From a virus (Duplodnaviria; Caudoviricetes), in the IMG/VR virus record IMGVR_UViG_3300044796_000401: a stretch of DNA of 64,000 nt; one strand, written 5' to 3'. Under the pieces are notes generated by a model that saw only the letters and a list, made by a program, of their open reading frames with translations, did not search any database and had not been told where the DNA came from. Both the position numbers and the translations under genes were made by a program. Below are positions 30,798-46,784 of the stretch, piece by piece. The number at the start of each line of letters is the position of its first letter. Position 1 is the first letter of the stretch.

Positions 30798-31184
30798 ATG
30801 AAGATCAGATTCAAGCTGTTGGTTCTAATCGCCGCCGCTGTTCTGCTCACGGGAATCGCAGTGGCACGGACTGTCGATGTGTCCGGCGAATGGCTTCTCA
30901 CGACGGGATGGGACCCCGAAGTGGGGATTATCAGGCTAACAACCTCTGCCAGCGGGTTCCAAGGGGTATATACCGCTGGTCTGGAGGAGGACGGGTATCA
31001 TTGCGACATCAAAGACGGCAAAGTAAGCAAGTCGAGGAAAGTCAGTTTCACCTTCGTCTGCGGCTCAGATGAAATAGAGGCGAGGCTGACAGGACGCATC
31101 GCCAAGGATGGGAACACCATCGAGGGGAGCGTCAACAACGGCGACGGCAAGAAGTACTACTTCACGATGACGAGGACAAAGTAA
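30798..31184 (+). CDS. Secreted beta-rich hypothetical protein
   Basis: Signal peptide MKIRFKLLVLIAAAVLL...; DVSGEW motif. Confidence 0.6.
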   Translation: MKIRFKLLVLIAAAVLLTGIAVARTVDVSGEWLLTTGWDPEVGIIRLTTSASGFQGVYTAGLEEDGYHCDIKDGKVSKSRKVSFTFVCGSDEIEARLTGRIAKDGNTIEGSVNNGDGKKYYFTMTRTK

Positions 31185-31496
31185 GAGCCGCAGTATTAGA
31201 TGAGTGGCTGGGCCGCTTGCCGATAAGGCAAGCCCACTGTCAGACACTACGTCCCGAATCTGACGACAAAGGGACGGTTCGTGAGGGTCGGTCCAGCCAA
31301 TTTTTTTATGGGTTGCCAGCAGAATGAAACGATACGTGAAACGATACGTGAAACGATACGTGATTCAGTTCACCGCTAAGATGGTTGGATGCGATTCGAC
31401 AAGCGGCTATCCGGTTGTGACGGAAATGCTGCAAGACCTCGGCAAGGTACGGACTACGGAACTGCCCAGCGGCTTGATTTCGTTCCCCAAAAACAG

Positions 31497-32175
31497 GGGA
31501 ATTATCCCTTTAAGTACACAAAAAATCTTGTAACTATCTTGTTTTCAACACAATACAACTAGCTAAAATCCCCGCACGGAGGTATACTAAGAGCATGAAA
31601 TATACAAGCATAAAATCCTACCTTAAATCGTACGCCATTTATGGCCACCGGAGCACGTCCATCAGTCATGGGTTTGCATCCGCTATCGCCCCCATTGAAA
31701 CCTATGATGAATCGCGTATTAAGCAAGCACTAGCCTCGCTTGGTCAAGACCCCAACAACCTGACTTGTGTGTTTTGTGGTAAAGAAGCGGAGACTTGGGA
31801 CCATCTGGTTAATCTGGTGCTCGACGGACAACTTCACGGCTACGGCCATCAACTGGGCAATTTGCTGCCCTGCTGTCGTCGCTGTAACTCCAAGAAGGGT
31901 GGACGCAATTGGCGAGAATACCTGCACGAAACCGCACCCAATGAAGCCGAGTACGAACGCAAGAGCGGTGCGATACAAATCTACCTCGACACTTATGCCC
32001 GTCCTGTCAACACTGAAGAAATGAAAATTGTATGCCCCGAAGATTGGAAGCGGTTTTGCGAAATCAAACAACAAATTTTCTCGCTCATGCGGGAAGCGGA
32101 CGAGATTGCCCCCCGTTTAAGGGAGGCCGCTTTACTCCAACGCTCACAAATTGTGGAGTTAAAGGGATAATTCCC
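31497..32175 (+). mobile_element. Non-autonomous IS1595-type cassette carrying an HNH gene
   Basis: 17-bp perfect inverted repeats GGGAATTATCCCTTTAA; perfect 8-bp duplication AAAAACAG (31489-31496 and 32176-32183); no transposase. Confidence 0.92.
31595..32170 (+). CDS. HNH endonuclease (cassette passenger)
   Basis: CVFCG...WDHLV...GNLLPCCRRCNSKKG; leaderless start; stop codon lies inside the right TIR. Confidence 0.85.
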   Translation: MKYTSIKSYLKSYAIYGHRSTSISHGFASAIAPIETYDESRIKQALASLGQDPNNLTCVFCGKEAETWDHLVNLVLDGQLHGYGHQLGNLLPCCRRCNSKKGGRNWREYLHETAPNEAEYERKSGAIQIYLDTYARPVNTEEMKIVCPEDWKRFCEIKQQIFSLMREADEIAPRLREAALLQRSQIVELKG

Positions 32176-32186
32176 AAAAACAGTTC

Positions 32187-32216
32187 TTGACAGTTTTCCG
32201 GCTACCGCGGTATTAT
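32187..32216 (+). promoter_or_regulatory. Sigma70-type promoter of tRNA operon 1
   Basis: TTGACA-18-TATTAT. Confidence 0.8.
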
Positions 32217-32222
32217 ACAGAC

Positions 32223-32303
32223 ATGGTTCGCATACCCATATCGTCGTCATCCAGTAGCCCCTCAGGGGCGGGCGGCGGTGTGCGCGATACCTTCGAAGAT
32301 TAA
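32223..32303 (+). CDS. Leader peptide of the Ser/Ile tRNA operon (MVRIPISSSSSSPSGAGGGVRDTFED)
   Basis: Leaderless ATG; codons ATA CCC ATA TCG TCG TCA TCC AGT AGC. Confidence 0.75.
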   Translation: MVRIPISSSSSSPSGAGGGVRDTFED

Positions 32304-32326
32304 GAGAGCACACAGAAGCAGTAAGC

Positions 32327-32360
32327 GCCGCCAGACAGTTTTGGCGGCTTTTTTGTTTTT
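32327..32360 (+). terminator. Intrinsic terminator/attenuator upstream of tRNA-Ser
   Basis: GCCGCCA/TGGCGGC stem plus U tract; left arm complementary to leader segment GGCGGCG (32271-32277). Confidence 0.8.
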
Positions 32361-32363
32361 AGC

Positions 32364-32455
32364 GGAGACGTGGGTGAATTGGCAAAACCACCACACTGCT
32401 AATGTGGGGCTTCCAGAGATGGGGCATCCGGGGTCGAGACCCGGCGTCTCCGCCA
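32364..32455 (+). tRNA. tRNA-Ser(GCT)
   Basis: GGAGACG/CGTCTCC acceptor, CT-GCT-AA loop, long variable arm, G73-CCA. Confidence 0.9.
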
Positions 32456-32464
32456 AGTTTAAGC

Positions 32465-32556
32465 AGTCCCGTAGTTTAACGGTAAAACAGCGGTCTTATA
32501 AGCCGCAAGCTCTCGATTGGAGCGCGTTGAAGGTTCGAATCCTTCCGGGACTACCA
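32465..32556 (+). tRNA. tRNA-Ile(TAT) with a long variable arm
   Basis: AGTCCCG/CGGGACT acceptor, CT-TAT-AA loop, TTCGAAT, A73-CCA. Confidence 0.8.
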
Positions 32557-32560
32557 GTTT

Positions 32561-32642
32561 GGGGACGTGGCTGAGTGGCTTAAGGCGCACACTTGGAAAG
32601 CGTGAAAGCGTGCCGTGGGTTCGACTCCCACCGTCCCCGCCA
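32561..32642 (+). tRNA. tRNA-Ser(GGA)
   Basis: GGGGACG/CGTCCCC acceptor, TT-GGA-AA loop, G73-CCA. Confidence 0.85.
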
Positions 32643-32653
32643 AAGTTGAATAC

Positions 32654-32748
32654 GGCGAGTTGGCTCAGTGGCTACAGCACCCGCCTCGAAAGCGGGCAAA
32701 TGTCGGTGATCCCGGCATACGGGGGTTCGAGTCCCTCACTCGCCGCCA
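32654..32748 (+). tRNA. tRNA-Ser(CGA)
   Basis: GGCGAGT/ACTCGCC acceptor, CT-CGA-AA loop, long variable arm, CCA. Confidence 0.9.
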
Positions 32749-32799
32749 AAATTGTGAATGTAAGGATTGAACTATCAACTCCTATGTATGGAGGCATTT

Positions 32800-33498
32800 A
32801 TGGTAGTTCATACGGTGTATAAAACCACAAACTTGGTCAACACTTGTTTTTACATAGGCATGCATAAAACGGCAAATCCGAACGACTCGTATTTGGGGTC
32901 GGGCACGGTGATAAAACGGGCGATCAAGAAACATGGTGCAGATAGGTTCAAAAAAGAAGTTCTGTTCGTCTTTCTAACCGCAAAAGAGGCCGCGGACAAA
33001 GAAGCTGAACTGTTGTTAGCTGAGAAAGTCAGCCCGCTTTGCTACAACTTGCACGAGGGCGGTAGCGGGGGTTTTGAATACATTAACAAGCACTATGCTC
33101 ATATGAAGCGTAAGTTGTTTAAGAAGGCTGAAATCGTTAGGCTAGAAAAGTTAAGGACCGATCCCGAGTTTCGCAAACGCGTTGGTGAACGAATCAGTAA
33201 GGCCCAACGCAAGAAATACAAAAGTGACCCAGAATTTCTGGAAGCCGCCAGAAGAAGAGTTTTGCTGCTTCAGCCGTCAGCCGTGGAGGTTTGGCGTGGA
33301 CAGAAGCACACTAAAGAGACCAGAAAAATTCTCAGCGACAACCACCGGGGGGAGCGGAATTCAATGTTTGGAATGCATTGGATGTATAATGATGACACCC
33401 AACAGTCGAAGCGGTTTCCTAAAAATGAAACAACAGCACAGCAACAGGTAGGATGGCAGTTGGGAAGAAAATTCTACGGAAGAGTGGCCGAACGGTAA
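32800..33498 (+). CDS. GIY-YIG (Seg-like) homing endonuclease with a NUMOD3-type region
   Basis: VYKTTNLVN..FYIGMH......YLGSG; GQKHTKETRKILS; 3' end overlaps tRNA-Ser(TGA). Confidence 0.85.
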   Translation: MVVHTVYKTTNLVNTCFYIGMHKTANPNDSYLGSGTVIKRAIKKHGADRFKKEVLFVFLTAKEAADKEAELLLAEKVSPLCYNLHEGGSGGFEYINKHYAHMKRKLFKKAEIVRLEKLRTDPEFRKRVGERISKAQRKKYKSDPEFLEAARRRVLLLQPSAVEVWRGQKHTKETRKILSDNHRGERNSMFGMHWMYNDDTQQSKRFPKNETTAQQQVGWQLGRKFYGRVAER

Positions 33499-33568
33499 GG
33501 CATCCGCCTTGAAAGCGGACGATGCCTTGAAAGGGTTATGGGGGTTCGAATCTCCCCCTCTTCCTCCA
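33478..33568 (+). tRNA. tRNA-Ser(TGA)
   Basis: GGAAGAG/CTCTTCC acceptor, CT-TGA-AA loop, long variable arm, CCA. Confidence 0.88.
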
Positions 33569-33586
33569 TTTCCAGTATTAGTCCTT

Positions 33587-33711
33587 GCGTGGTGCCGCGA
33601 GCGGCAACGCCGCGGGGTGAAATAAAACTGTCAGGGACAAAGACCCCTAAGGGTGAATGGCGTTAACTGGCAGTAAAAGTAGCCGAGTGCCAACATTAAC
33701 CTTCACCACGC
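33587..33711 (+). ncRNA. Candidate structured non-coding RNA
   Basis: Ends pair (GCGTGGTG/CACCACGC); internal GCAA-tetraloop hairpin; further complementary pairs GGTGAA/TTCACC, GTTAA/TTAAC, TGGCA/TGCCA. Confidence 0.45.
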
Positions 33712-33718
33712 ACATCCT

Positions 33719-34015
33719 ATGGAAGAACACTATTGCGATGTCCAGATTTTCAAGGGTCCGTGCGACTGCAAGATAAGCTGCGAGAAGTGCCGGATCGGCT
33801 GCTTCAAGCCCGCCAAGTTCCGGAACCCCTCGTACGATCCGGACGGGTTGGTGAAGGGCACGATCTACAATTACGCCGAATGGTTATGCGCTTCTCACTG
33901 GGATGAAGCGGTGGCATACAAGGAAGAGTATGACGACAGGGTGGAACAGGGGATGTCCGACGATTTTGACTGTAGGACAGGAACGAGATTTTTTGGCGGA
34001 GGACTAGCATGGTAA
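33719..34015 (+). CDS. Small Cys-rich hypothetical protein
   Basis: 98-aa ORF with several CxxC-like pairs. Confidence 0.55.
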   Translation: MEEHYCDVQIFKGPCDCKISCEKCRIGCFKPAKFRNPSYDPDGLVKGTIYNYAEWLCASHWDEAVAYKEEYDDRVEQGMSDDFDCRTGTRFFGGGLAW

Positions 34016-34317
34016 AGTACACGATCACGGCGAGCAAGGACTCGAAGACGGTCGCCGTCCGCTATCATCTGGAGGTCCCGGCCGGGGGGCCCGAGCTTAT
34101 CGCCCGCTTCTCCTTCTACGTGGACGGCAGCGACGCCATCAAGGAAAGCGCCTCGGGGAACACCGTGTTCAGCGGCACCGCGTTCGCCAAGCTCGCCGAT
34201 GGGGCCAAGGACGTGGCTGTGAGCTTCGCCATCTCGTCCAGCACCGGGTGGACGGCGGACGGCTCGGACACGCTGCGCGGCGGGCACCCGTATGACGACT
34301 CGGAGTTCTCGAACTGA
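34009..34317 (+). CDS. Hypothetical protein
   Basis: GGAGGA Shine-Dalgarno. Confidence 0.55.
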   Translation: MVKYTITASKDSKTVAVRYHLEVPAGGPELIARFSFYVDGSDAIKESASGNTVFSGTAFAKLADGAKDVAVSFAISSSTGWTADGSDTLRGGHPYDDSEFSN

Positions 34318-34510
34318 TGCACACGTGCAACAAGATGTTGCCGGACTCGGCGGGAGGATATTCGCAATGCCAAAAGCCTGCCGTTCGGTCTGCACTGCTT
34401 GGCTGGTGCGGCGATGTTTTCCAGCACCGCATAAAACCCAGCAGCATACGGTTGGTCTCGCCACATCAACTGAGGTAGCCAAAATCCCCGGTTCCCTGTA
34501 TACTACGGGT

Positions 34511-34822
34511 ATGGAAACCGTATCAGTTTACGTGCTCATCGAGTCGACCGTGCTCCCGAAGGGCAGGATCAACCGCAACGTGGGCGTCACCACGGACCTC
34601 GACGAGGCCAAGGACCACAAGGCCCGGAACCCCGTGCCGGGCACCGGCACCTCCTACATCGAATTTGACTACCAGGAATTCACCACCGCCACCGACCTCT
34701 TCGTGGCTGGCGCTGAATCCGCGCTTTTTATGAAAGAAATGGAGCAGTTCAAGGAAACCGTCCAAGGCGTCCGCGACAGGCTCGTGGACACCATGATGGG
34801 AAGGCAACCGCATGCTCGATAA
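34511..34822 (+). CDS. Hypothetical protein
   Basis: Leaderless start 6 nt after TATACT. Confidence 0.6.
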   Translation: METVSVYVLIESTVLPKGRINRNVGVTTDLDEAKDHKARNPVPGTGTSYIEFDYQEFTTATDLFVAGAESALFMKEMEQFKETVQGVRDRLVDTMMGRQPHAR

Positions 34823-35241
34823 CCAGCAATGGGATACGTTGCAGGACCGGATCGCCAGCGCCATATGCGCCAGCACGGGCGGAACAACCCAAGGCGGCGG
34901 CCGAACAGTATGACAAGATGTTCAAGTATCGCCGCGGCTGCAGCATGATCTTGCTGGACAAGTGGAGCGAGGCCTCGTGGATGCGCAAGCGCCCGACGTG
35001 GCACACCGCGGGCTATTCGCCATCGCTCGAAGAGGCGTTGGCCGTCTTCGAAAAGGACTGGAAAAATGGCGGTTGACCAAAAGGCGACATTCAAGAGCGA
35101 GCGTTCGGCGTTCCTCGTGAAGCCGCCCGCCTGCTACTGGTGCCTCGACGCCAAGCGGGTCGCCGTCACGCCCTTCACCACGGAGCAGCATGACAACGGC
35201 ACCGTCCCGGTGAAGGAATGCCCATACTGCAAGGGGAAATA

Positions 35242-35559
35242 ATGGAGTCCCTCGGACCCAAGCCGACCGCGAAACAGATGGAGACGCTCAAGAAGCTGTG
35301 CGAAGAGGGCGTGGAAATCCATTGGTGGTCCGGTCTTCGCAGCCCCGACCATGCTTCGATTGTGTGGAAGGATGCCGCCGGGGCCAGCTTCGGATCGGAA
35401 CGATTTCGTACCGACACGCTTTACAAGTTCCGCACGTGGGGCTGGATCGAGGCGATCGGCGACCCGGCTTGGGCGTGGCGGAACAACGAGTACCGCATCA
35501 CCGAAAATGGACGCAAGGTAGCGGAGATGGGAGCGATACGAAAGTCAAGGACCCCATAG
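35242..35559 (+). CDS. Hypothetical protein
   Basis: TAATG overlap; MESLGPKP... Confidence 0.55.
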   Translation: MESLGPKPTAKQMETLKKLCEEGVEIHWWSGLRSPDHASIVWKDAAGASFGSERFRTDTLYKFRTWGWIEAIGDPAWAWRNNEYRITENGRKVAEMGAIRKSRTP

Positions 35560-35592
35560 CTAAAGCTGGGGGTATCCGCAGCGGCATAAGAG

Positions 35593-35799
35593 ATGAGCAA
35601 AGCCGTCACGATCAAGTACCGCGGCGGGAGGCAGGAGATCAAGAGCCTCAAGGCCGACTACTGCTCCGGCGTGGTTCCAACGGGAAGCTCCACGTCCTAC
35701 CGGTGTTTCCGTCTCAACAATAAAGACGTGGGACGCGTGGCCGAGGGGAAATGCGACCCCGAGAAATGCGTGTTCTGCAAGCCAAGGAAAGAGGAATAA
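35593..35799 (+). CDS. Small Cys-containing protein
   Basis: 68-aa ORF abutting the next gene. Confidence 0.45.
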   Translation: MSKAVTIKYRGGRQEIKSLKADYCSGVVPTGSSTSYRCFRLNNKDVGRVAEGKCDPEKCVFCKPRKEE

Positions 35800-36261
35800 G
35801 TGGTTCCCTTAATCGCAGGCTTCCATCCCGGCTACGAGCGCAACGGCATCTACACGATAGAGGCCGTGCTGTCGCGGCTTGGCAACTCGTGGGCCGTGTT
35901 CGGCAACGACATAATCCCGGTCGTCTCCTTGCGGTACCAGGTTTTCGCCCGGTCGCTGGTTTGCGTAAGCTGCGGGCTCGAAGGAAAATATTTCGCCAAG
36001 GAGCGCAGCGCGAAGAAGCTCAGGGACGGCTCGGGCTTCAAGGCCACCGCCAAGGCTTGGCATTTCAATCTCTATGCGATGCGGGCGGATGGCCGGGAAG
36101 TCCTCATGACGAAAGACCATGTTCTCCCGAGATCAAAGGGCGGGCCGGACGTTCTTGAGAACCTACAGACCATGTGCGCCCCGTGCAATTGCCGGAAACG
36201 GGACAACCATCGCTATCAGGCGAGGCTTCCGTTCGAGGCCCGCGGGGAAAATTCCCGGTAG
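35800..36261 (+). CDS. HNH endonuclease
   Basis: CVSCG ... TKDHVLPRSKGGPDVLENLQTMCAPCNCRK. Confidence 0.85.
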   Translation: MVPLIAGFHPGYERNGIYTIEAVLSRLGNSWAVFGNDIIPVVSLRYQVFARSLVCVSCGLEGKYFAKERSAKKLRDGSGFKATAKAWHFNLYAMRADGREVLMTKDHVLPRSKGGPDVLENLQTMCAPCNCRKRDNHRYQARLPFEARGENSR

Positions 36262-36465
36262 AATTGGCAATTCCGTATTAGGCCTCATGATCATTCGGTT
36301 CGCCAATTTCGTGCTCATCCTGTGCTACATTCTTCTTGGGCACAATCGCTTTAGGGCTGGATGGGCCGCAAGCGTCACGGGAAATTTGATTTATGTGGCC
36401 ATGATGCTGCGCATGCACCGCTTTGACCTTGCATTTTTGCCAGCAACCTTCACAATACTAGCAGG

Positions 36466-38601
36466 GTGGAATCTATGGGTCCTCGTCAAGCGCCAGAAAT
36501 CTACGAACTGATCGTCGGGAAAACGGATTACCCGTACCTCGACGGGACCGTCCATCTCTTCGTCGGCGGCTCCGCGGCGCACGGCGCGAAGCTCGAAGGC
36601 AAAAGCGACTTCGACCTGCTCGGCGTGTACGTCCCACCGATAGAGGAGGTCGTCGGCGTCCGCGGCGTGGACGAGCATTGGGTCTGGAGCACGGCGGGGG
36701 ACAAGGTGCGCAACGGCGCGAACGACATCGACATGAACATGTACTCCCTTCGCAAATGGGCAAGGATGGCAACATCCGGCAACCCGAGCGCCATCGAGTT
36801 CATGTTCGTGGACAACCTCGCTCCCAAGAGCGACATCTGGGAGCGCTTCGTCACGCCGAACATCCCCGTGTTCCTGAGTTCCCACGCCGGGCTGCACTTC
36901 CAGAAATTCTGCGAGCACATGCTCCGCACGCTCAAGGGCGAGGGGCAGGGCAAGCGTGGAAAGCGGCTGGACTTGATCGCCGAGTTCGGCTACGATTGCT
37001 ACGACGACAGTCAAACCGAGTTTCTTACCGACCGTGGTTGGAAGAAATTCGATGGTGTGTTAAATTCAGACAAGGTAGCTGCTTTCGACCCGCTCACAGG
37101 CGAGATCAAGTTTGAAACTCCGCTATCTAAAATAGACAAACATTACTCTGGGTTGTTGTATGAAGTAGAGCCCCAGCTTACACGATGCGTAGTAACTCCC
37201 AACCACAACATGGCAGTTTCTCCAGCTTCCCGCAACCCAAAAACAAACTTCAGCACTAAATTTGATCCCGGCAAGGCAGACTGGGGTCTTGTTCCTATTT
37301 CAAGTTTAATGTCCGGGGTCAAAAAGCGTGTAGCGCGTTCTATGTACCACATTCGCCGCGCAGGATCGAGACGGGATCAAAGATTTGATGTTCAATCCGA
37401 ATACCTGCTCTTGGCTGGGATGTACTTGTCCGAAGGTTCAATCGCCTTTTACAAAAGTAAAACGGGGAAAAAAGTGAAAGCCGCCCGTCTCACCCGGACT
37501 AAAGAAGGCAAAGACGAATACTATAAGTATGCCGATAGGCTGATTCGTTTATTCCAAGGGCACCGCCATGACTATCCCCGTAAGCATGTTGAGTGTGAAA
37601 CCACTTGGGTTTTTCCTCGTAAAATTGCTAGACAGATATACGCAGATTTTGGACATCATAAGGAAAAGCACCTTCCCGATTGGTGTTTTCGGTTATCATA
37701 CGATCAGGCATGGGAGATGTGGAACGGCTTGTGCTTGGGGGATGGAACTCGCATTAAAACAAAGCGGAGCGTAGGGCAGGGCGTTGTATTTTACACATCT
37801 GTCAAGAATCTGGCGGATGACATACATGCAATGATGGTTTCATCCGGGCACATATGCGTGGTAAACGGACCATATGGCCCCTATGGATACGAACCGAAAA
37901 GCGCGTTCGGTGATTGTGCGATGTACCAAGTATATCGTCCAGACGATCAAAATCCGTATCGATGTGTGAATTTTAGAAGCGGTATCTTGAAAACCGGAGA
38001 GGAACCGGACCTCGAAAAGGGATACTCTATCAAAGAATCCCTCGTAGAAAACCGTCGAATCGTTTGCTTTGAAATGCCATCTGGCACGCTTATAACTCGC
38101 AGTAATGGACGACCCGCATTCCAAGGCAATAGCAAGGCAGCTATGCACCTGATCCGCGTGCTCAACGAGGGCATCGAGCTCATGGAGACGGGCAGGATCA
38201 CGCTGCCCCGCCCCGAGAAGGAGCACCTGATCGACATACGGAAGGGCAAAGCCGGAACCCTGAAGGACATCGAGGACATCGCGCAAGCGCTTTTCACCCG
38301 GCTCGAATCCGCACGGCTGGCCTCCGCCCTGCCACCGGCGGTCGATCTCGGCAAGGTCAGCGGCATCATTACCTCCGCGCAGGAGACGGTCTGGAACCAA
38401 AGCAACGAGGTCTTGCAGATCATAAGCAAGGCGTTCTCCGTATCAGCGTGGTGGATCGCCTCGCACAACAAAGCCAACCCGACGCCCTTGACAGGGAAAT
38501 GGGATGAGTGGCAAGATCAGAAGTGGGTCGAGAGGGAGATGGTCAAGGTGGCGATGGACCTCCACGAGAAGGAGAAGGCCGATGCCAAAAAAGGCGTCTA
38601 A
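36466..38601 (+). CDS. Pol-beta-superfamily nucleotidyltransferase (Nuc-transf/RlaP-like) with an intein
   Basis: GSAAHG...KSDFDLLGVY, SLRKW....GNP..IE, GYD|SKAAMHLIR, ITLPRPE..L..IRKG. Confidence 0.8.
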   Translation: MESMGPRQAPEIYELIVGKTDYPYLDGTVHLFVGGSAAHGAKLEGKSDFDLLGVYVPPIEEVVGVRGVDEHWVWSTAGDKVRNGANDIDMNMYSLRKWARMATSGNPSAIEFMFVDNLAPKSDIWERFVTPNIPVFLSSHAGLHFQKFCEHMLRTLKGEGQGKRGKRLDLIAEFGYDCYDDSQTEFLTDRGWKKFDGVLNSDKVAAFDPLTGEIKFETPLSKIDKHYSGLLYEVEPQLTRCVVTPNHNMAVSPASRNPKTNFSTKFDPGKADWGLVPISSLMSGVKKRVARSMYHIRRAGSRRDQRFDVQSEYLLLAGMYLSEGSIAFYKSKTGKKVKAARLTRTKEGKDEYYKYADRLIRLFQGHRHDYPRKHVECETTWVFPRKIARQIYADFGHHKEKHLPDWCFRLSYDQAWEMWNGLCLGDGTRIKTKRSVGQGVVFYTSVKNLADDIHAMMVSSGHICVVNGPYGPYGYEPKSAFGDCAMYQVYRPDDQNPYRCVNFRSGILKTGEEPDLEKGYSIKESLVENRRIVCFEMPSGTLITRSNGRPAFQGNSKAAMHLIRVLNEGIELMETGRITLPRPEKEHLIDIRKGKAGTLKDIEDIAQALFTRLESARLASALPPAVDLGKVSGIITSAQETVWNQSNEVLQIISKAFSVSAWWIASHNKANPTPLTGKWDEWQDQKWVEREMVKVAMDLHEKEKADAKKGV
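36997..38130 (+). mobile_element. Intein (378 aa) with a LAGLIDADG-type endonuclease
   Basis: Starts CYDDSQTEFLTDRGW, ends TLITRSNGRPAFQGN followed by Ser+1; LAGMYLSEGS and GLCLGDG motifs. Confidence 0.88.
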
Positions 38602-38860
38602 ACCCAGCAGCAGCAGCGTCGAGAAGAGCATCATGGACTGGGCCAACGACCCCCTGTCCTCGGCGAATGTCGAGGACCCGGTGGATTCGCTGGAGGAGGA
38701 AATCCGCAAGCTTCCTTGCTACAGCACCAAAGTTCTCGCGTCAAGCGGTATTCATGCGACGGCTTGCGTGCAAGTGGAAGACGTGATGCTCGCCATCCGG
38801 CGCTACAGGGCAAGGATTTGGGAACTCAAGGAAAAGGGAACCCGAGGAGAAAAACGATGA
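38582..38860 (+). CDS. Hypothetical protein
   Basis: ATG after GGAGAAGG; overlaps the previous stop. Confidence 0.5.
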   Translation: MPKKASKPSSSSVEKSIMDWANDPLSSANVEDPVDSLEEEIRKLPCYSTKVLASSGIHATACVQVEDVMLAIRRYRARIWELKEKGTRGEKR

Positions 38861-39141
38861 ATTTCAAGACATGGATACCGTATTGCGCAGTACCGCACAA
38901 ATGACAGGTGCGGCCACGTGTTCTTCACGCTTCATGCGGTGCCCGAACTGGGAGAAAAAGGAGTCATACTTGTTTAAGCATCTTCTTTTGCTGTTGTCAC
39001 GATTGTTCCCTCCGAAGATGGGGAAGTTCGGCGTCTACGTCGAATCGCCGGAACCGGATGAACGGGGATGGGCCGGAAATGTGCGCGAGAAGCGGTACCG
39101 TGACGGCATCGACCGCGTGATGCAGGAGGGGATGTAGAGCC

Positions 39142-39492
39142 ATGAAAAAGCATTTGTTGCCGTTGGCGGGCGTGCTGCTCGGCACAATGTTGTTCTTAAT
39201 GGCTTGTGGTAACCCGCCTGTTTCGTCTTTGTCTCTCGCGGTTACAACAGCGTCTTTGCCAGCAACGGTTGTGGGCCAGTCCTACTCGCAACAGTTGCTT
39301 GCTTCCGGTGGTGTCGGACCGTATCGTTGGTCTGTCATTTCCGGCAGCTTACCCGTGGGTCTCAGTCTCAGCACCACGGGATTGCTTTCGGGTAAGCCTA
39401 CCACGGTAGGACAATTCTCGTTTACGGTTCAGGTAACTGATTCCGCAACTACAGCGGGGGCTGTAGCCCAAATTCAAATGAGGGGGGTTTAA
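39142..39492 (+). CDS. Lipoprotein with a putative Ig (He_PIG-like) domain
   Basis: LMAC lipobox; TTASLP...VGQSYSQQL.ASGG..PY.WSV.SGSLP.GL.L...G.LSG.PT. Confidence 0.75.
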   Translation: MKKHLLPLAGVLLGTMLFLMACGNPPVSSLSLAVTTASLPATVVGQSYSQQLLASGGVGPYRWSVISGSLPVGLSLSTTGLLSGKPTTVGQFSFTVQVTDSATTAGAVAQIQMRGV

Positions 39493-40169
39493 TGAAGAGG
39501 TTTTTCATCGCAGCTTTTCTATCTCTCGGTTTGTCGATGGCCGCATTCTCACAGGATAAGGCCACGGCAAATTTGAGCATCGTCGTCAACGCGGCTGTTG
39601 TTACAATCGCGCCCAGCACGCTTCCGCCGGGCATGGTTGGGACAGTCTACGGCGGCGTGGGCACCACGATTTCGGCGTCAGGGGGTTTGGCACCATACAC
39701 CTTTGCTATCTCGGCTGGCACGCTGCCCGCTGGAGTGGTGTTGGGTTCCTCTACGGGCGCTCTTACAGGGGCACCAACCGCATCCGGTCTGTTTACATTC
39801 ACGGTGAAGGCCACGGATTCCGAGGCTACACCCGCCACGGCAGCACAGGTTTATTCCATCAACGTGCTTGCTACTCTGGCAATTACAACGATCAGTCTGC
39901 CTTCTGCTAATCTCGGTGTGGCTTACTCTTCAAGCGTGGCCGCGTCGGGCGGTCAGTCTCCGTACACCTTCGCAGTAACGCTGGGGTCTTTGCCCACAGG
40001 CTTGACTTTGAATGGTTCGACTGGCGCTATCACAGGAACGCCAACAGCAGCCGGGACATTCACCTTCACGATTACCGTAACCGACTCTGCAACGAATGTG
40101 GCTATGACCCATGTTGAAGCCGTAATCGTAGCTGAAAACAAAGTTAAGACGAAGAAAGGTACTGTCTAA
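39492..40169 (+). CDS. Secreted protein with two He_PIG-like Ig domains
   Basis: Signal peptide; two LP.G..G..Y...ASGG..PYTF....G.LP.G..L....G..TG.PT..G.FTFT repeats. Confidence 0.8.
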   Translation: MKRFFIAAFLSLGLSMAAFSQDKATANLSIVVNAAVVTIAPSTLPPGMVGTVYGGVGTTISASGGLAPYTFAISAGTLPAGVVLGSSTGALTGAPTASGLFTFTVKATDSEATPATAAQVYSINVLATLAITTISLPSANLGVAYSSSVAASGGQSPYTFAVTLGSLPTGLTLNGSTGAITGTPTAAGTFTFTITVTDSATNVAMTHVEAVIVAENKVKTKKGTV

Positions 40170-40816
40170 TGCGCCGGGCACCTGAGGTTTCGTTGGAACT
40201 AACGAAAACCCATCTGGTTATTCGCATTCCGATCAAAGCTCAGCTTGTGCCTATTGCGGAGAAACTAAAAGATAGGGCGGGTTCGCCGCCCTATCTTCCT
40301 CCGCAAACTCTTAAAGTATTTGAAGGCGTGCGCAAAGGACTCCAAAACAAGGAAATCGCCTCAAATATGAACATCTCGGAACGAACTGTGAAATTTCATG
40401 TAACTGAGATTTTTCAGCGTCTTGGGATAACCGGACGAGCAGAAATTCTTAAACGATTCGGCTACTCACTGATGCTGTTGTTTGCTTTGTTTTTGATGCC
40501 GCTCCATGCTCAAGACAAAACGTCAAAGGTTTTTTCGATGTGGGTTGGGCACACGGTGATGCTTACTTGGACTGCCAGCACGAGTTCCGGTGTCACGAGC
40601 TACAACATCTACTCGTCGGCTTCGAGCGGCGGACCGTACACGATTCTGGGTTCAACGTCGGGCTGTTGCAGCTTTCAGGCTTTGAACTTGGTTGCTGGAA
40701 ACACCTATTACTTCGTGGCGACAGCCGTAGCACCGCCGTGCGTCGATGGACAGGACGTACCCTGCGGAGAGAGTATCTACTCTAACGAGGCGACGGCGAC
40801 GCTTCCGACGCCGTAG
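40169..40816 (+). CDS. LuxR-type HTH fused to a TM/signal segment and an FN3-like domain
   Basis: GLQNKEIASNMNISERTVKFHVTEIFQRLG; hydrophobic LMLLFALFLMPL; VMLTWTAS...SYNIYSS...YYFVATAV...ES.YSNEA. Confidence 0.65.
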   Translation: MRRAPEVSLELTKTHLVIRIPIKAQLVPIAEKLKDRAGSPPYLPPQTLKVFEGVRKGLQNKEIASNMNISERTVKFHVTEIFQRLGITGRAEILKRFGYSLMLLFALFLMPLHAQDKTSKVFSMWVGHTVMLTWTASTSSGVTSYNIYSSASSGGPYTILGSTSGCCSFQALNLVAGNTYYFVATAVAPPCVDGQDVPCGESIYSNEATATLPTP

Positions 40817-40847
40817 TTGAAAGGAGCGCGTGATGAAAAGGTATTTG

Positions 40848-41115
40848 CTGCCAGTTGCTGTTGACCGAAATCTTGCTTCGGGCAAAATTCTAGGGAATCA
40901 CTGTATAATTCCCACAAGATAAGAAAGGACTTACGATGAGAAGAGAAGGAAACAGCATTGTGTGGTCGCCAGAGATTGAAAGGCAAATGCTGAAAAACAT
41001 AGCGGATGAACGAAAATGCCCGTGCAATGGGAGTAAAAACTGCCCGGACTGCCAGTTGCTGTTGACCGAAATCTTGCTTCGGGCAAAATTCTAGGGAATC
41101 ACTATATAATTCCCA
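40848..41115 (+). repeat. 67-bp direct repeat (40848-40914 and 41049-41115, one mismatch)
   Basis: CTGCCAGTTGCTGTTGACCGAAATC...GGGAATCACT(G/A)TATAATTCCCA; flanks a 52-aa ORF at 40936-41094. Confidence 0.9.
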
Positions 41116-41138
41116 AAATTTATTAGTAAGGAAAAAAC

Positions 41139-41819
41139 ATGACTGAACGAACAGTTGAGCAAGCGAAGGCGGATTGCATCGCGGCATGGGCCGCGCACCC
41201 GGAGGCGACGCACGGCTGGTGTGTGCATCATGAGGTAGAGATGGAAGAACTAACCGAGCCGATTGAAAACCGAATCCGCTACATTGTAGAAAACAAAGCG
41301 GAAGAAGAAATCGTTACACGCTTGGATAATCTGCGCCCCGTGCTATCCAAAGTTCCCATATTGACACAGAAGGCCTATGATGAAGCCACCGCCCCGGCAT
41401 GGAAGGCCTACCGCGAAGCCACCGCCCCGGCATGGAAGGCCTACGACGAAGCCACCGCCACGGCACGGAAGGCCCACGACAAAACCATTGCCTCGGCATG
41501 GAAGGCCTATGACGAAGCCACCGCCCCGGCATGGAAGGCCTACGACGAAGCCACCGCCACGGCACGGAAGGCCCACGACAAAACCATTGCCTCGGCACAG
41601 AAGGCCTACGACGAAACCGCCGCCCCGGCATGGAAGGCCTACGACGAAGCCACCGCCCCGGCATGGAAGGCCTACCGCGAAGCCATCGCCCCGGCAGAGA
41701 AGGCCTATGGCAAAGCCATCGCCCCGGCACGGAAGGCCTACGGCGAAGCCATCGCCGCGGCGCACAAGCAGGATGTCCCGGACCACACGTGGGACGGAAA
41801 AACCATTTTCCCGAAATAA
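41139..41819 (+). CDS. Protein with 11-aa Ala-rich tandem repeats (KAYDEATAPAW)
   Basis: About 12 imperfect 33-bp repeats in frame; AAGGA Shine-Dalgarno. Confidence 0.75.
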   Translation: MTERTVEQAKADCIAAWAAHPEATHGWCVHHEVEMEELTEPIENRIRYIVENKAEEEIVTRLDNLRPVLSKVPILTQKAYDEATAPAWKAYREATAPAWKAYDEATATARKAHDKTIASAWKAYDEATAPAWKAYDEATATARKAHDKTIASAQKAYDETAAPAWKAYDEATAPAWKAYREAIAPAEKAYGKAIAPARKAYGEAIAAAHKQDVPDHTWDGKTIFPK

Positions 41820-42013
41820 AAGAGAGGCGTAGCATGGACGAAAGCGAAAACGAACGCATAGACCTCGACGTGCAGGACGGGCAGCAGGTGCACCCGCTGG
41901 ACCGCTGCCATTGCGGCAAGGATTCCCACGAGGACGAATCCACCGCCTGGCTGGGGGTCAATAATCCCCAGCCCCAAAGGGCGGGGCTTGGTGAGTTCCA
42001 CTAAGCACATTGA

Positions 42014-42256
42014 CATAAGTTAGCATATTTCGGCGACTTCTGCGAACGCAATGCGATTTACGTTAGCTGGGAACTTTTGGCCGATGCGAAACAGCTTGCT
42101 TCATTCGTGACCGCCGAACTCAACCGTGCGATCTTTACGTATGAGGAAAACGCGTTCATCAACGGCACCGAGCCCGACCGAGCCGATACCATCACCAATG
42201 AACGGATCGCATCGCTTCCCGCCGAAGTCCGGGAAGCCATCAGAGGAGGGAAGTAA
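42014..42256 (+). pseudogene. Possible fragment of an HK97-type major capsid gene
   Basis: Frame without a start codon: HKL...IYVSWELLADAKQLASFVTAELNRAIFTYEENAFINGT. Confidence 0.4.
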
Positions 42257-42669: not shown

Positions 42670-42697
42670 TTGATTTTCCCGCTGTCCGGTGTATTAT
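42670..42697 (+). promoter_or_regulatory. Promoter of tRNA operon 2
   Basis: TTGATT-16-TATTAT. Confidence 0.65.
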
Positions 42698-42725
42698 GTA
42701 GGTGCACAGTATCGTGGTTAAGAAC

Positions 42726-42830: not shown

Positions 42831-42855
42831 GAAGAGTCCCAATCCAAAGAATTCC

Positions 42856-42895: not shown

Positions 42896-42969
42896 AGGGG
42901 AGTCGTCCAACGGTAGGACTCTGGTCTCCAAAACCAGGTATGGCGATTCAAATTCGTCCTCCCCTGCCA
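42896..42969 (+). tRNA. tRNA-Trp(CCA)
   Basis: AGGGGAG/CTCCCCT acceptor, CT-CCA-AA loop, G73-CCA. Confidence 0.88.
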
Positions 42970-43010
42970 AAGTTTAAGCCGTGTCCGTGAGTTAGCCGGG
43001 CACGCAGGGT

Positions 43011-43086
43011 GTGGCCGTGGCAACTATTGGCATGTTGCACCTGTCTGTGGAACAGGGTCTTGTGGGTTCAATTCCCACCGGTCACC
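43011..43086 (+). tRNA. tRNA-His(GTG)
   Basis: GTGGCCG/CGGTCAC acceptor, CT-GTG-GA loop, C73; CCA and G-1 not encoded. Confidence 0.8.
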
Positions 43087-43131
43087 CTTTCGTGACTTCC
43101 TGAGTATTAAGTAGGGTGCTCAGGAGGGTTC

Positions 43132-43974
43132 ATGATGTTTTACACGGTGTACAAGACGGTTAATTTGCTGAACGGTGAGTACTACTTCGGGGTTCACAAG
43201 ACTGAGAATCCCAAGGATGTTTATCTCGGTTCCGGGACATACATCAAGCGAGCCGTTGCCAAGTGCGGGGAACAGAACTTCCGCAAGGAAGTGCTGTTCA
43301 CCTATCTCGATGCGAAGTCGGCGTTCGGTAAGGAGGACGAACTGATTCAAAGTTATCGCGGACGTGATTCGCTGTGTAAGAATCTGAGAAAGGGCGGTAG
43401 CGGTGGGTTTGATTGGATCAATGAGAAGGGATTAAACGGCACCAAAGTAGCTAGGGCGGCTGGGGTAGAAAAAAGACGGAGAGATACTTTTCGTAAACGA
43501 TGGGAGAATGATCCAGCGTTCAGGAAAAAGCTTTCGAAAAACGGACGAAGAGCCCTAAAATGTGTTTCCGATGAAACCAGAAAAAGGAATCTTCTTTTAG
43601 GCGCGAAAGCTTGGAAAGGACAACACCACACTAAAGAGTTTCGAGAACGAAAAAGCCAAGAACAACGCGGAATTAACAATTCCCAATTTGGCTGCCGATG
43701 GATGAGAAAGGAAGGGGTTGTACGGAAGGTTGCTCGAACTGAAGTTGAGAGGGCTTTAACTGAGGGATGGTTATTTGGAAAAGTCGCACCTAAAGTACGA
43801 CAAAAACAAACTAGAAAACCAACATTAAACGAGCAAGCCCCCAAAGGAACCCGTTGGTGTTCTAGTCACAAACAATTTTTGGATGTTCAATTGTTTCACG
43901 GGAAATATAAATATTGTAAGGCATGCCGAAGAACTCAAAGAATTATTCGGCGTCAGCGGTTAGGACATTGGTAA
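43132..43974 (+). CDS. GIY-YIG (Seg-like) homing endonuclease
   Basis: VYKTVNLLNGEYYFGVH......YLGSG; GQHHTKE; paralogue of 32800..33498. Confidence 0.85.
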   Translation: MMFYTVYKTVNLLNGEYYFGVHKTENPKDVYLGSGTYIKRAVAKCGEQNFRKEVLFTYLDAKSAFGKEDELIQSYRGRDSLCKNLRKGGSGGFDWINEKGLNGTKVARAAGVEKRRRDTFRKRWENDPAFRKKLSKNGRRALKCVSDETRKRNLLLGAKAWKGQHHTKEFRERKSQEQRGINNSQFGCRWMRKEGVVRKVARTEVERALTEGWLFGKVAPKVRQKQTRKPTLNEQAPKGTRWCSSHKQFLDVQLFHGKYKYCKACRRTQRIIRRQRLGHW

Positions 43975-43981
43975 AAGTTTT

Positions 43982-44058
43982 GCGCCCGTAGCTCAATGGA
44001 TCAGAGCGTTCGGCTACGAACCGAAAGGCTGCGAGTTCGAGTCCCGCCGGGCGCACCA
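43982..44058 (+). tRNA. tRNA-Arg(ACG)
   Basis: GCGCCCG/CGGGCGC acceptor, CT-ACG-AA loop, CCA. Confidence 0.92.
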
Positions 44059-44079
44059 GATTTTTGAAGAATGGGTTTT

Positions 44080-44157
44080 GCGCCTGTAGCTCAGTTGGAG
44101 CAGAGCGTTCGCCTCCGAAGCGAAAGGTCGCGAGTTCGAGTCTCGCTAGGCGCACCA
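44080..44157 (+). tRNA. tRNA-Arg(CCG)
   Basis: GCGCCTG/TAGGCGC acceptor, CT-CCG-AA loop, CCA. Confidence 0.92.
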
Positions 44158-44162
44158 GATTT

Positions 44163-44254
44163 GAGTTCGGCCCTGTCGGCAACTGGACAGTCGGCTTCGC
44201 TACGAACGCCCAGCCCTTCGGGGAATGCAGGTTCGAGTCCTGTCACCCGTTCCA
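44163..44254 (+). pseudogene. tRNA-like element with an unpaired acceptor stem
   Basis: Intact T arm GCAGG-TTCGAGT-CCTGT, variable arm, D-like hairpin and CCA, but no 5' strand matching CACCCGT. Confidence 0.55.
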
Positions 44255-44258
44255 GTTT

Positions 44259-44334
44259 TGGGAAGTGGCGCAATTGGGAGCGCAGCGGGTTCTGAACCCG
44301 AAGGTTGTTGGTTCGAACCCAACCTTCCCAACCA
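44259..44334 (+). tRNA. tRNA-Gln(CTG)
   Basis: TGGGAAG/CTTCCCA acceptor, TT-CTG-AA loop, CCA. Confidence 0.85.
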
Positions 44335-44339
44335 AGTTT

Positions 44340-44414
44340 TGGGGTGTGGTCTAACGGTAAGGCACCGCACTGTTAATGCGGACGATGAAGGTTCGAGTCC
44401 TTCTGCCCCAGCCA
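44340..44414 (+). tRNA. tRNA-Asn(GTT)
   Basis: TGGGGTG/TGCCCCA acceptor, CT-GTT-AA loop, G73-CCA. Confidence 0.88.
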
Positions 44415-44432
44415 AGTTTTGAAGGGAGACTG

Positions 44433-44579
44433 ATGGGAACAGCTATTGCGGTGATTGCGAGTTTTATCTTGGGCGCTGTCATGGACCACTTCTTGGAAGC
44501 GCGAAGCGCCAAGGCCGTAACGACGGCGATCAAGCATTTGGAAGATAGCGTTGTGGCGGAGATACGGAAGTTGCGGTAA
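44433..44579 (+). CDS. Small single-TM protein (48 aa)
   Basis: GGGAG Shine-Dalgarno; MGTAIAVIASFILGAVM... Confidence 0.5.
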   Translation: MGTAIAVIASFILGAVMDHFLEARSAKAVTTAIKHLEDSVVAEIRKLR

Positions 44580-44590
44580 AAAGTTTCAGT

Positions 44591-44665
44591 TCCCCGTTAG
44601 CTCAGTGGCAGAGCGTTCGGCTGTTAACCGAAGTGTCGGGAGTTCGAATCTCTCACGGGGAGCCA
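44591..44665 (+). tRNA. tRNA-Asn(GTT)
   Basis: TCCCCGT/ACGGGGA acceptor, CT-GTT-AA loop, G73-CCA. Confidence 0.92.
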
Positions 44666-44671
44666 AGATTT

Positions 44672-44746
44672 GGGTCTGTAATTCAGCGGCAGAAAACCTC
44701 GCCCTTAACGAGGGGGCCGAGAGTTCGAGTCTCTCCAGACCCACCA
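44672..44746 (+). tRNA. tRNA-Lys(CTT)
   Basis: GGGTCTG/CAGACCC acceptor, CC-CTT-AA loop, CCA. Confidence 0.85.
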
Positions 44747-44783
44747 AATGCAGACTCTTATTATGAATTCAGTATTAAGAGTC

Positions 44784-45275
44784 ATGGAACAGGAAAAAGT
44801 ATGCTGCCGATGTAAGGCTCCTAAACCAGTTGACGCTTTTAACTGGAAAAATCGAGCTAAAGGAATTCGACAGAGTTTTTGTCGGACGTGTAAAAAGGAG
44901 TATCAAGGCACTTGGTATAAAAATCACAGAGACGAGCAACTAGCACGAATCCTAGCTAGAAAAACTCGTATTGTGAAAGAAAACCAAGATCGCATTTGGG
45001 TTTATTTGAAGGAACATCCATGCGTTGGCTGTCCTGAGAATGATCCGGTTGTTTTAGATTTTGACCATGTACGTGGGGCTAAAAGAGTGGAAATCTCTAC
45101 GATGTTAGCCCACGGATGTGCATGGAAAAGCATCTTGAAAGAGATAGCTAAATGCGAAGTTCGCTGTAGAAATTGCCATCATCGCCGACATGCGGTGGAA
45201 CTTGGCTCTTGGCGAGTAACGCAAGCTTCACAAGATTGCGCTCATAGCTCAACTGGGAGAGCAGGAGACTCTTAA
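44784..45275 (+). CDS. HNH homing endonuclease
   Basis: CCRC...CRTC Zn motif; CVGC...VLDFDHV...EIAKCEVRCRNCH; 3' end overlaps tRNA-Lys. Confidence 0.85.
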   Translation: MEQEKVCCRCKAPKPVDAFNWKNRAKGIRQSFCRTCKKEYQGTWYKNHRDEQLARILARKTRIVKENQDRIWVYLKEHPCVGCPENDPVVLDFDHVRGAKRVEISTMLAHGCAWKSILKEIAKCEVRCRNCHHRRHAVELGSWRVTQASQDCAHSSTGRAGDS

Positions 45276-45313
45276 TCTCAAGGTTGCAGGTTCGACCCCT
45301 GCTGGGCGCACCA
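45238..45313 (+). tRNA. tRNA-Lys(CTT)
   Basis: GCGCTCA/TGGGCGC acceptor, CT-CTT-AA loop, CCA. Confidence 0.9.
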
Positions 45314-45362
45314 GATTAAACTGGAAGGACTTTTGAGTTCTTCTGGTAGAAGGGAAGTTGTT

Positions 45363-45941
45363 ATGGGAACTGACACACTAGTGCTTGACATGACGGGAAC
45401 CCCCATCGGGTTCGTCGGCTGGCAGAAAGCCGTGACCATGGTGTGGAAAGATCGTGCTATGGTCATGGATGAAGATTCGGAAAAAATTTTGAGGTCGCCT
45501 TCGTTCGAGATGGGCATGCCCACGGTCATCCGTGCGAGGAACTGGGTGCGCCGCCGTCGGAAGACCGCGGTCCCGTTCTCCCGCCGCAACGTTGCGGTCA
45601 GGGACAACAGCGAGTGCCAGTACTGCGGCAAGCTGCTTCACCTGCCGGAGTACACGCTGGATCACGTGGTCCCGAGGGTCCAGGGCGGATCGAGCAACTG
45701 GAAGAACCTCGTGCTGGCATGCATCAGGTGCAACAAGCACAAGTCCGGGAGCACCCCGGAACAGGCCGGAATGCGTTTGCGCAGGATGCCGTTTGAGCCG
45801 AAGCCGGACGACCCGAAGTACAACTTCAAGCTTCGGATCAAGAAGATGCATCCGAGTTGGCGGCCGTATGTGGACGGCGGCTGGCTGTATGCCGAGAAGG
45901 CCGCCTACGCGTATTGGAACGTGGAACTCTCGGAGAAATAG
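45363..45941 (+). CDS. McrA-like HNH endonuclease
   Basis: FSRRNV..RD...CQYCG...TLDHVVPR.QGG.SNW.NLV.AC..CN..K...TPEQAGM.L. Confidence 0.88.
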   Translation: MGTDTLVLDMTGTPIGFVGWQKAVTMVWKDRAMVMDEDSEKILRSPSFEMGMPTVIRARNWVRRRRKTAVPFSRRNVAVRDNSECQYCGKLLHLPEYTLDHVVPRVQGGSSNWKNLVLACIRCNKHKSGSTPEQAGMRLRRMPFEPKPDDPKYNFKLRIKKMHPSWRPYVDGGWLYAEKAAYAYWNVELSEK

Positions 45942-46183
45942 GTTCCACGGGAGATCGGCTCAACGGAAGGTCAGGATTGAGCCGGACCATCGTGGTCGCC
46001 GCCAGGCGATGCCGGTGGCAGGACGGGAGAGGGCGATGTGGAGGCCCTCTCCCGTACGGAATTCGGTCGGTAGCTACGGCTCCCGGCGATAGCCCGAGGC
46101 GCTTAGTACAGGCGTTCGGGCGGGGAAGCTCTCTTGTCCCCCATCCTGCGGTTGAGAGTCCGTGGCCACGGATCGCAGGAAGC
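45942..46183 (+). ncRNA. Candidate multi-hairpin non-coding RNA inside the tRNA operon
   Basis: At least five long GC-rich hairpins, e.g. perfect 12-bp ACGGGAGAGGGC/GCCCTCTCCCGT, CGGCTCAA/TTGAGCCG, TCCTGCG/CGCAGGA. Confidence 0.5.
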
Positions 46184-46185
46184 AC

Positions 46186-46261
46186 GGCCCCATAGTTCAA
46201 ACGGACAGAACGCTAGTTTCCTAAACTTGAAATCCCGGTTCGAGTCCGGGTGGGGCCGCCA
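46186..46261 (+). tRNA. tRNA-Arg(CCT)
   Basis: GGCCCCA/TGGGGCC acceptor, TT-CCT-AA loop, CCA. Confidence 0.85.
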
Positions 46262-46280
46262 GATTTTGATTGAAGGATGT

Positions 46281-46355
46281 TGCTTTGTCGTCTAATCGGC
46301 AGGACACAGGTCTCTGGAACCTGTTATAATGGTTCGAGTCCATTCAAAGCAGCCA
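46281..46355 (+). tRNA. tRNA-Gln(CTG)
   Basis: TGCTTTG/CAAAGCA acceptor, CT-CTG-GA loop, G73-CCA. Confidence 0.88.
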
Positions 46356-46621
46356 ATTTTATGACGAAGGCGAAGTCGCTCAAACAAGTCGTTGCAACCG
46401 CCCGCAAGAACGGGAAGATGAGGATGTCGCAGGCGTATTTCGACCTGATGCTTGAGGGGATGCAGATGCCCGAAGAGCTCGGTAAAGCAGCGGTAGAGGC
46501 GGCAAAAAGGAAGAAGTGATGCAGGCTCTCGCACAACTCGGTGTCGCAACGGGATTCGTCGTGATCCTTGTCGGGTTGCTCTTTCTTCCCAACCTCAGAC
46601 GAAAACGTTGATCCCACCTCC

Positions 46622-46698
46622 GCTCCCGTCGTCCAATGGAATAAGGACGCTAGTCTTCTAAACTAGGAATATGGGTTCAAGTCCCATCGGGAGCCCCA
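46622..46698 (+). tRNA. tRNA-Arg(TCT)
   Basis: GCTCCCG/CGGGAGC acceptor, CT-TCT-AA loop, CCA. Confidence 0.88.
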
Positions 46699-46708
46699 AT
46701 CTTTCCGT

Positions 46709-46784
46709 GGGCTGCTAATTCAATTGGCTAGAAGCGCAGACCTTTAATCTGTTAATTTCGGTTCGAGTCCGGAGCGGCCCACCA
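46709..46784 (+). tRNA. tRNA-Lys(TTT)
   Basis: GGGCTGC/GCGGCCC acceptor, CC-TTT-AA loop, CCA. Confidence 0.82.

Follow-up and report, generated by a model that had tools for sequence, protein, structure and literature searches.

A short leader reading frame with the cognate codons of its own tRNA operon: a candidate attenuator in a large phage genome

Leader-peptide attenuation is the textbook form of translation-coupled transcription control of amino-acid operons. The thrL leader senses threonine and isoleucine, the leaders of ilvGMEDA and ilvBN sense isoleucine, valine and leucine, and trpL, hisL, pheL and leuL are leader-peptide attenuators as well. Here we describe a leader that resembles these systems and lies in front of a set of five transfer RNA (tRNA) genes (operon 1), in a 64-kb stretch of DNA (IMG/VR record IMGVR_UViG_3300044796_000401, 64,000 nucleotides; the window). 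The window belongs to a large phage genome, and its sequence is present in peat and pond metagenomes; it contains 18 tRNA genes in two arrays, with homing-endonuclease-like open reading frames (ORFs) interspersed. Based on sequence analysis, the leader of operon 1 is probably a ribosome-mediated attenuator, which would sense how AUA and the codons of all four serine isoacceptor classes are decoded, and would gate the matching tRNA genes. This reading, already put forward in a preliminary description of the window, is supported by the anatomy of the locus, by a second operon that serves as an internal replicate, by an exchange of leaders between the two operons, by conservation in a relative, by the alternative RNA helices and the range of ribosome positions over which they would respond, and by the recurrence of the design in other phages.

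The elements of operon 1 follow each other as promoter, 110 nucleotides (nt), strong terminator, 16 nt and first tRNA gene (Table 1). Twelve promoter-like sites in the window match at least 10 of the 12 sigma-70 consensus positions, and only the one at 32187-32216 has a terminator within 260 nt. The two cleanest canonical terminators on the plus strand of the window are those directly before the two tRNA arrays; the terminator of operon 1 has a stem of 9 pairs, 6 of which are G-C, and lies 16 nt 5' of tRNA-Ser(GCU). A scan with the sigma-70 consensus identified no promoter site in this 16-nt gap. Between promoter and terminator lies a short ORF, of which the ATG at 32223 starts at the seventh base past the -10 box, so that the ORF would be leaderless. 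The codon run occupies leader codons 4-12, with an additional TCA at codon 14. Nine of the 25 codons after the initial methionine are cognate to tRNAs of operon 1 and together they cover all five anticodons (5/5), each tRNA having a Watson-Crick or G34:U cognate codon within the run. The promoter, leaderless ORF of 26 amino acids, terminator and five tRNA genes given in the preliminary description were all found where it had placed them, and its claim that a run of nine codons holds a cognate codon for every tRNA was borne out.

Table 1. Coordinates of the predicted features of operon 1 and of the second tRNA array (positions in the window).
Feature	Position	Strand	Remarks
Sigma-70-type promoter, TTGACA-18 nt-TATTAT	32187..32216	+	11/12 consensus positions
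Predicted leaderless leader ORF, 26 codons, MVRIPISSSSSSPSGAGGGVRDTFED	32223..32303	+	stop TAA 32301-32303
Regulatory codon run ATA CCC ATA TCG TCG TCA TCC AGT AGC (CCC) TCA	32232..32264	+	
Region 1, AUAUCGUCGUCA	32237..32248	+	pairs with region 2
Region 2, GGCGGCGGUGUGC	32271..32283	+	partner of region 1 or region 3
Region 3, GCACAC 32308-32313 and CGCCGCC 32326-32332	32308..32332	+	CGCCGCC also terminator 5' arm
Intrinsic terminator, stem-loop 32327-32348, then T6GT5	32327..32360	+	-15.6 to -16.7 kcal/mol
Region 4, terminator 3' arm	32340..32348	+	
tRNA-Ser(GCU)	32364..32455	+	
tRNA with anticodon UAU (reads AUA)	32465..32556	+	class II long variable arm, A73; 66.5 bits
tRNA-Ser(GGA)	32561..32642	+	
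tRNA-Ser(CGA)	32654..32748	+	
GIY-YIG/NUMOD3 homing-endonuclease-like ORF	32800..33498	+	between tRNA-Ser(CGA) and tRNA-Ser(UGA)
tRNA-Ser(UGA)	33478..33568	+	last gene of the array
tRNA array 2: Trp, His, Arg (4 anticodon types), Gln, Asn, Lys (2 types)	42896..46784		

We estimated in three ways how often such a codon match arises by chance. Full coverage of the operon 1 anticodons was obtained in 0.8% of the stop-free stretches of 26 codons in the six frames, in 0.09% of draws from the codon usage of the window, and in 23 of 808 (2.8%) mechanically defined small ORFs. When the leaders were exchanged, the leader of operon 1 covered one of the ten anticodon types of the second operon, and the leader of the second operon covered two of the five anticodons of operon 1.

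The second operon (operon 2, leader and terminator within 42670-42895) is an internal replicate that is codon-disjoint from operon 1. Its array comprises 13 genes with ten anticodon types, and is preceded by a TTGATT-N-TATTAT sequence, an ORF of 34 codons (42726-42830) and a terminator (42859-42884). The ORF contains AGG, AAA, AAT, AGA, CGA, AAG, CAT, CAG, CGG and TGG, and therewith a cognate codon for 10/10 anticodon types, scattered across 20 codons. Under the same null models, full coverage of operon 2 was reached in 0.02-0.09% of the stretches and in 4 of the 808 small ORFs (up to 0.5%). A possible antiterminator of operon 2 pairs GGCGGGU (42800-42806) with ACCCGCC (42858-42864).

The RNA of the operon 1 leader can adopt mutually alternative pairings. 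The 1:2, 2:3 and 3:4 pairings that had been proposed at 32241, 32271 and 32326 all exist, and the 2:3 helix proved longer than was claimed, as GUGUGC (32278-32283) pairs with GCACAC (32308-32313) in addition; the antiterminator thereby joins GGCGGCG and GUGUGC to GCACAC and CGCCGCC. The free leader is predicted to fold into the 1:2 hairpin and the terminator (z = -3.2). Computed separately, the helices have energies of -23.4 (1:2), -21.7 (2:3) and -16.7 kcal/mol (3:4), an order that would fit a classical attenuator. In equilibrium folding with a masked ribosome the terminator always formed; this was rejected as a test of the switch because attenuators are kinetic, and truncated transcripts were used instead. 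For these, the transcript was cut 5' of region 4, the footprint of the ribosome was masked and the A site was moved codon by codon. In this transcript lacking region 4, the 2:3 helix forms with the A site at codons 2-14, and from codon 15 on, as well as at the stop codon, the 1:2 helix re-forms or region 2 is covered. The cognate codons are all located at leader positions 4-14, and therefore inside this sensing range of codons 2-14.

Both leader-tRNA modules are present in a relative, IMG/VR contig 3300010339_000002 (69 kb, approximately 30% complete; referred to as G001). Its operon 1 leader is 80% identical and is followed by the same five tRNA types, and the short ORF is again located directly 3' of the promoter and 5' of the tRNA genes. 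The G001 array is compact: the GIY-YIG/NUMOD3 ORF is absent and tRNA-Ser(UGA) lies inside the array. The leader ORF of G001 has 27 codons (MGYIVRISSSSSSSSGAGGGVRVYTTD), with the run ATA TCG TCG TCA TCT AGT AGC TCC TCA, in which a Pro to Ser replacement lengthens the run. Relative to the window there is an in-frame indel of 3 nt in the N-terminus of the peptide, and the two stop codons align with each other. All four pairing segments are retained. Little or no change is seen in the -10 box, the run, GGCGGCGGTGTGCG, GAGCACACAGA, GCAGTAAGCGCCGCCAG, the 3' arm of the terminator and the T-tract; region 2 is invariant and the spacing from the -10 box to the ATG is identical, whereas the N- and C-termini of the peptide and the loops of the hairpins have strongly diverged. 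The helix energies in G001 are -26.1 (1:2), -34.2 (2:3) and -19.8 kcal/mol (3:4).

A strain variant found in two runs provides a second comparison. In this variant, 642 nt upstream of the module (31523-32164, a gene of 191 amino acids) are replaced by 2.3 kb, and the module is kept from 32165 on, with the changes in the leader confined to the terminator loop. The arms of the terminator are kept in both G001 and the variant, and only the loop changes. In G001, the gene 5' of the module is divergent. These comparisons indicate that promoter, leader, terminator and tRNA genes travel as one module. Past 32455, the tRNA part of the variant has diverged by more than 5% or is rearranged. Another contig, G002, ends within a tRNA gene and so does not include the leader part. 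A DNA search of GenBank phages gave no match to 32100-33600, a search of 5.8 billion proteins with the protein of 98 amino acids encoded downstream gave only two homologues, and the RlaP-like protein described below has only one relative in IMG/VR; due to this scarcity of protein homologues, there is no distant relative of operon 1 to compare.

The same design recurs in phages with unrelated sequences, tRNA sets and hosts, in the form of a promoter, a short ORF with cognate codons, a terminator and a tRNA block. In Caulobacter phage phiCbK (JX100813), annotated terminators are located directly 5' of tRNA blocks. The product of gp083 (45 amino acids, annotated as hypothetical) is encoded with codons for 10/10 anticodons of the Pro-Lys-Leu-Ala-Ser block, and a leaderless ORF of 32 codons before block D has cognate codons for 8/8 anticodons of the Phe-Val-Ile-Gln block. 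When the phiCbK leaders and operons were compared in a 5 x 5 matrix, full coverage outside the diagonal occurred only against block B, which has two tRNAs. Metagenomic loci were collected through a 23-nt word from the D-arm and anticodon stem of the UAU tRNA, which is found exactly in at least 120 metagenome contigs; 80 loci were examined. These comprise 277 tRNA block starts, 16 of which have an upstream terminator, and two of those 16, in the freshwater contigs L032 and L080, have leaders that are related to each other (...ATA ATA TGT TGG CCA CCA... and ...CCT ATA TGT TGG TGC CCA ATA...), which precede Trp-Cys-Ile(UAU)-Gly and Trp-Pro-Cys blocks.

These data are consistent with the following mechanism. 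Transcription would start approximately 7 nt past the -10 box, yielding an mRNA that begins with AUG, and a ribosome would translate the leader of 26 codons. Slow decoding of AUA, UCG, UCA, UCC/UCU or AGU/AGC, possibly through scarcity, degradation or cleavage of host tRNAs at a time when the phage tRNAs are not yet made, would stall the ribosome on region 1. Region 2 (GGCGGCGGUGUGC) could then pair with region 3 and sequester the terminator 5' arm; with the terminator blocked, RNA polymerase would read into the five tRNA genes. If decoding is fast, the ribosome would reach the stop codon, the 1:2 helix would form behind it and the 3:4 helix would follow, and transcription would end in the T-tract, 16 nt short of the first tRNA gene. 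The net effect would be a negative feedback in which tRNA supply is sensed at isoacceptor resolution, with the five tRNAs as the inputs of an OR gate.

Several observations weigh against this reading. The codon match of operon 1 on its own is of moderate strength only (p = 0.001-0.03), leaderless initiation is an assumption, and serine starvation would likewise trigger read-through, futilely. For operon 2, folding gave no clear 1:2 helix and its antiterminator forms without a ribosome too; the logic of operon 2 may differ, in that the ribosome itself may occlude region 2. Nor is the design a general one, as 261 of the 277 metagenomic block starts lack a terminator immediately 5' of them. The CcrRogue homologue of gp083 keeps 9 Ser codons and its block has no Ser tRNAs, showing that a tRNA can be gained or lost with no matching change in the leader; the expectation that leaders track tRNA content thus holds in part, with agreement in the lineage of the window and CcrRogue as the exception in the phiCbK family. 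In one peat metatranscriptome run a contig covering 32005-32355 ends in the T-tract of the terminator, and contigs cannot show ends; the contigs of this run cover 29 of 30 bins of the 16.5-kb region and may include DNA, and with nearly the whole region covered the metatranscriptome cannot show termination.

The remaining reservations concern the RNA structure. Equilibrium folds of the full-length leader keep the terminator at every ribosome position, and therefore the switch works only as a kinetic, co-transcriptional model. When the spacer was shuffled, 6.8% of the shuffled sequences passed the same three-way switch criterion, in a G-rich context, and in 30% as much or more of the terminator arm was paired, so that structure alone is weak evidence and its weight rests on the pattern of conservation. 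Both results also favor an explanation in which the terminator is a constitutive, partly leaky stop, or a hairpin for 5' processing or stability of the pre-tRNA, that sets a low tRNA level: the alternative pairing is easily had by chance in this spacer, and the terminator is always retained. The ORF would then be untranslated, and its codons would be incidental or a by-product of the helices, as the G-rich strand is the pairing partner of the UCG and UCA repeats. The 1:2 helix alone could be the reason why the run is conserved. The helices do not explain why ATA codons are found next to the run in the window as well as in G001, or why AGU AGC is conserved although it lies in the loop of the 1:2 hairpin. 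Nor do helix constraints account for the frame-preserving indel and conserved stop position in G001, for the scattered 10/10 match of operon 2, or for the recurrence of the design with quite different sequences in phiCbK and L032/L080. We consider this explanation unlikely.

The architecture of the locus demands some control of read-through, which might also be exerted without a translating ribosome, through an antitermination protein of phage or host, a processive antiterminator or direct binding of tRNA as in a T-box. A regulator resembling GerE/sigma-70 region 4 is indeed encoded nearby (40169-40816), and the want of a clear anti-antiterminator in operon 2 would agree with such control. No T-box or other known leader RNA was detected in a leader of only about 100 nt, and this explanation leaves aside that both operons, and other lineages as well, have an open frame with all the cognate codons; we regard it as very unlikely. 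Least probable of all is a small gene that stands on its own and consists of promoter, ORF and terminator (for a serine-rich micropeptide or a small RNA), with the tRNAs depending on an unrecognized phage-specific promoter or on read-through from elsewhere. In its favor, the unit lacks no part of a gene, and some metatranscriptome contigs run into it from the 5' side across the promoter; against it, the peptide is conserved in the run only, the 16 nt from terminator to first tRNA are mostly T, and the module is always joined to a tRNA array (twice in the window, in G001, and in the strain variant with its different upstream gene).

A ribosome-mediated attenuator in front of operon 1 is the most likely of these explanations. 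The UAU tRNA was considered as a possible acceptor of Ser or Leu, and this was set aside; its A73, C4-G69 and U12-A23 are Ile-like. These three elements are Ile-like under the established E. coli identity rules, and on account of them the tRNA was kept as Ile(UAU).

The UAU tRNA is unusual in its own right. It is 90-94 nt long, with the long variable arm of class II, A73 and an encoded CCA. In 74 of the 80 examined loci the 23-nt word sits in such a long-arm UAU tRNA, amounting to 79 copies and 47 distinct sequences, in which the acceptor stem covaries and the D-arm is invariant. This looks like a widespread family of phage tRNAs, for which our literature search returned no paper. The phiCbK family contains further long-arm tRNAs whose anticodons are not those of Leu, Ser or Tyr, namely 'tRNA-Lys' (CUU, UUU) of 87-91 nt and class II-like length (L007 3641-3824 in phiCbK; L128 1951-2132 in CcrRogue).

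Other features of the region were noted as well. The end of the GIY-YIG/NUMOD3 ORF overlaps the first 21 bases of tRNA-Ser(UGA), and the interior of array 2 contains a GIY-YIG-like ORF (43132-43974) and HNH ORFs. Between Arg(CCG) and Gln(CUG), neither ARAGORN nor Rfam calls the tRNA-like stretch at 44160-44258; the corresponding site in G001 holds an Arg(acg) tRNA of 86 nt according to ARAGORN, and the stretch in the window may be a decayed or atypical tRNA. A protein of 711 amino acids with an RlaP (RNA-repair-associated nucleotidyltransferase) domain is encoded between both tRNA arrays (36466-38601). A NifU-like protein is encoded at 3031-4545 and is interrupted by an intein with an HNH domain.

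If operon 1 is controlled in the manner proposed, this would explain how a phage doses its tRNA arrays, via a feedback that senses the supply of single isoacceptors. It would also bear on the question why phages retain tRNAs, for which codon usage, host shut-off and evasion of anticodon nucleases come into consideration, and it would provide a compact natural sensor for the availability of specific tRNAs that is usable as a reporter. Since the same design is found in the cultured system of phiCbK and Caulobacter, the idea lends itself to direct laboratory tests. A connection with defence by anticodon nucleases is plausible, and speculative. More tentatively still, large phages might carry isoacceptor-resolved switches throughout the genome, with one translated codon panel for each tRNA block, that give a real-time readout of the host tRNAs in short supply or absent, also when tRNA-cleaving defence nucleases have acted, and turn on the matching tRNAs only. 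The unit at 32187-32360 would then be a counter-defence sensor rather than a mere means of codon-usage tuning; we consider this possible, and rather doubtful.

Full-text searches of the literature returned no account of tRNA genes under the control of leader-peptide attenuation, and attenuation is not mentioned in the phiCbK genome paper. A cmscan of 31000-48000 against Rfam (E up to 1) returned only tRNAs and sub-threshold chance matches, with no leader family and no T-box. T-box riboswitches are like operon 1 in that tRNA status is sensed and a terminator and antiterminator precede translation-related genes. They differ in that the uncharged tRNA is bound directly, through the specifier loop and the T-box bulge, with no need for translation, and the leader of operon 1 (about 100 nt) is too short for a T-box. 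In E. coli pheST, with its pheM leader, the attenuator controls a translation component that serves the codons it senses, as would be the case in operon 1; pheST differs in that a synthetase and a single amino acid are concerned instead of a set of tRNA genes. The closest likeness is to the multivalent attenuators of enterobacteria, which share with operon 1 a promoter-proximal short ORF with codons read by several tRNA species, regulatory codons in region 1 and a terminator before the genes; their mutually exclusive helices have predicted counterparts in the 1:2, 2:3 and 3:4 pairings of operon 1. In contrast to these, operon 1 is phage-borne, its mRNA is apparently leaderless, the tRNAs themselves are gated and not biosynthetic enzymes, and synonymous codons are sampled such that each isoacceptor class is represented. 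The mechanism is therefore probably like that of the multivalent amino-acid attenuators, and new in its target, the tRNA genes, and in its panel of synonymous codons.

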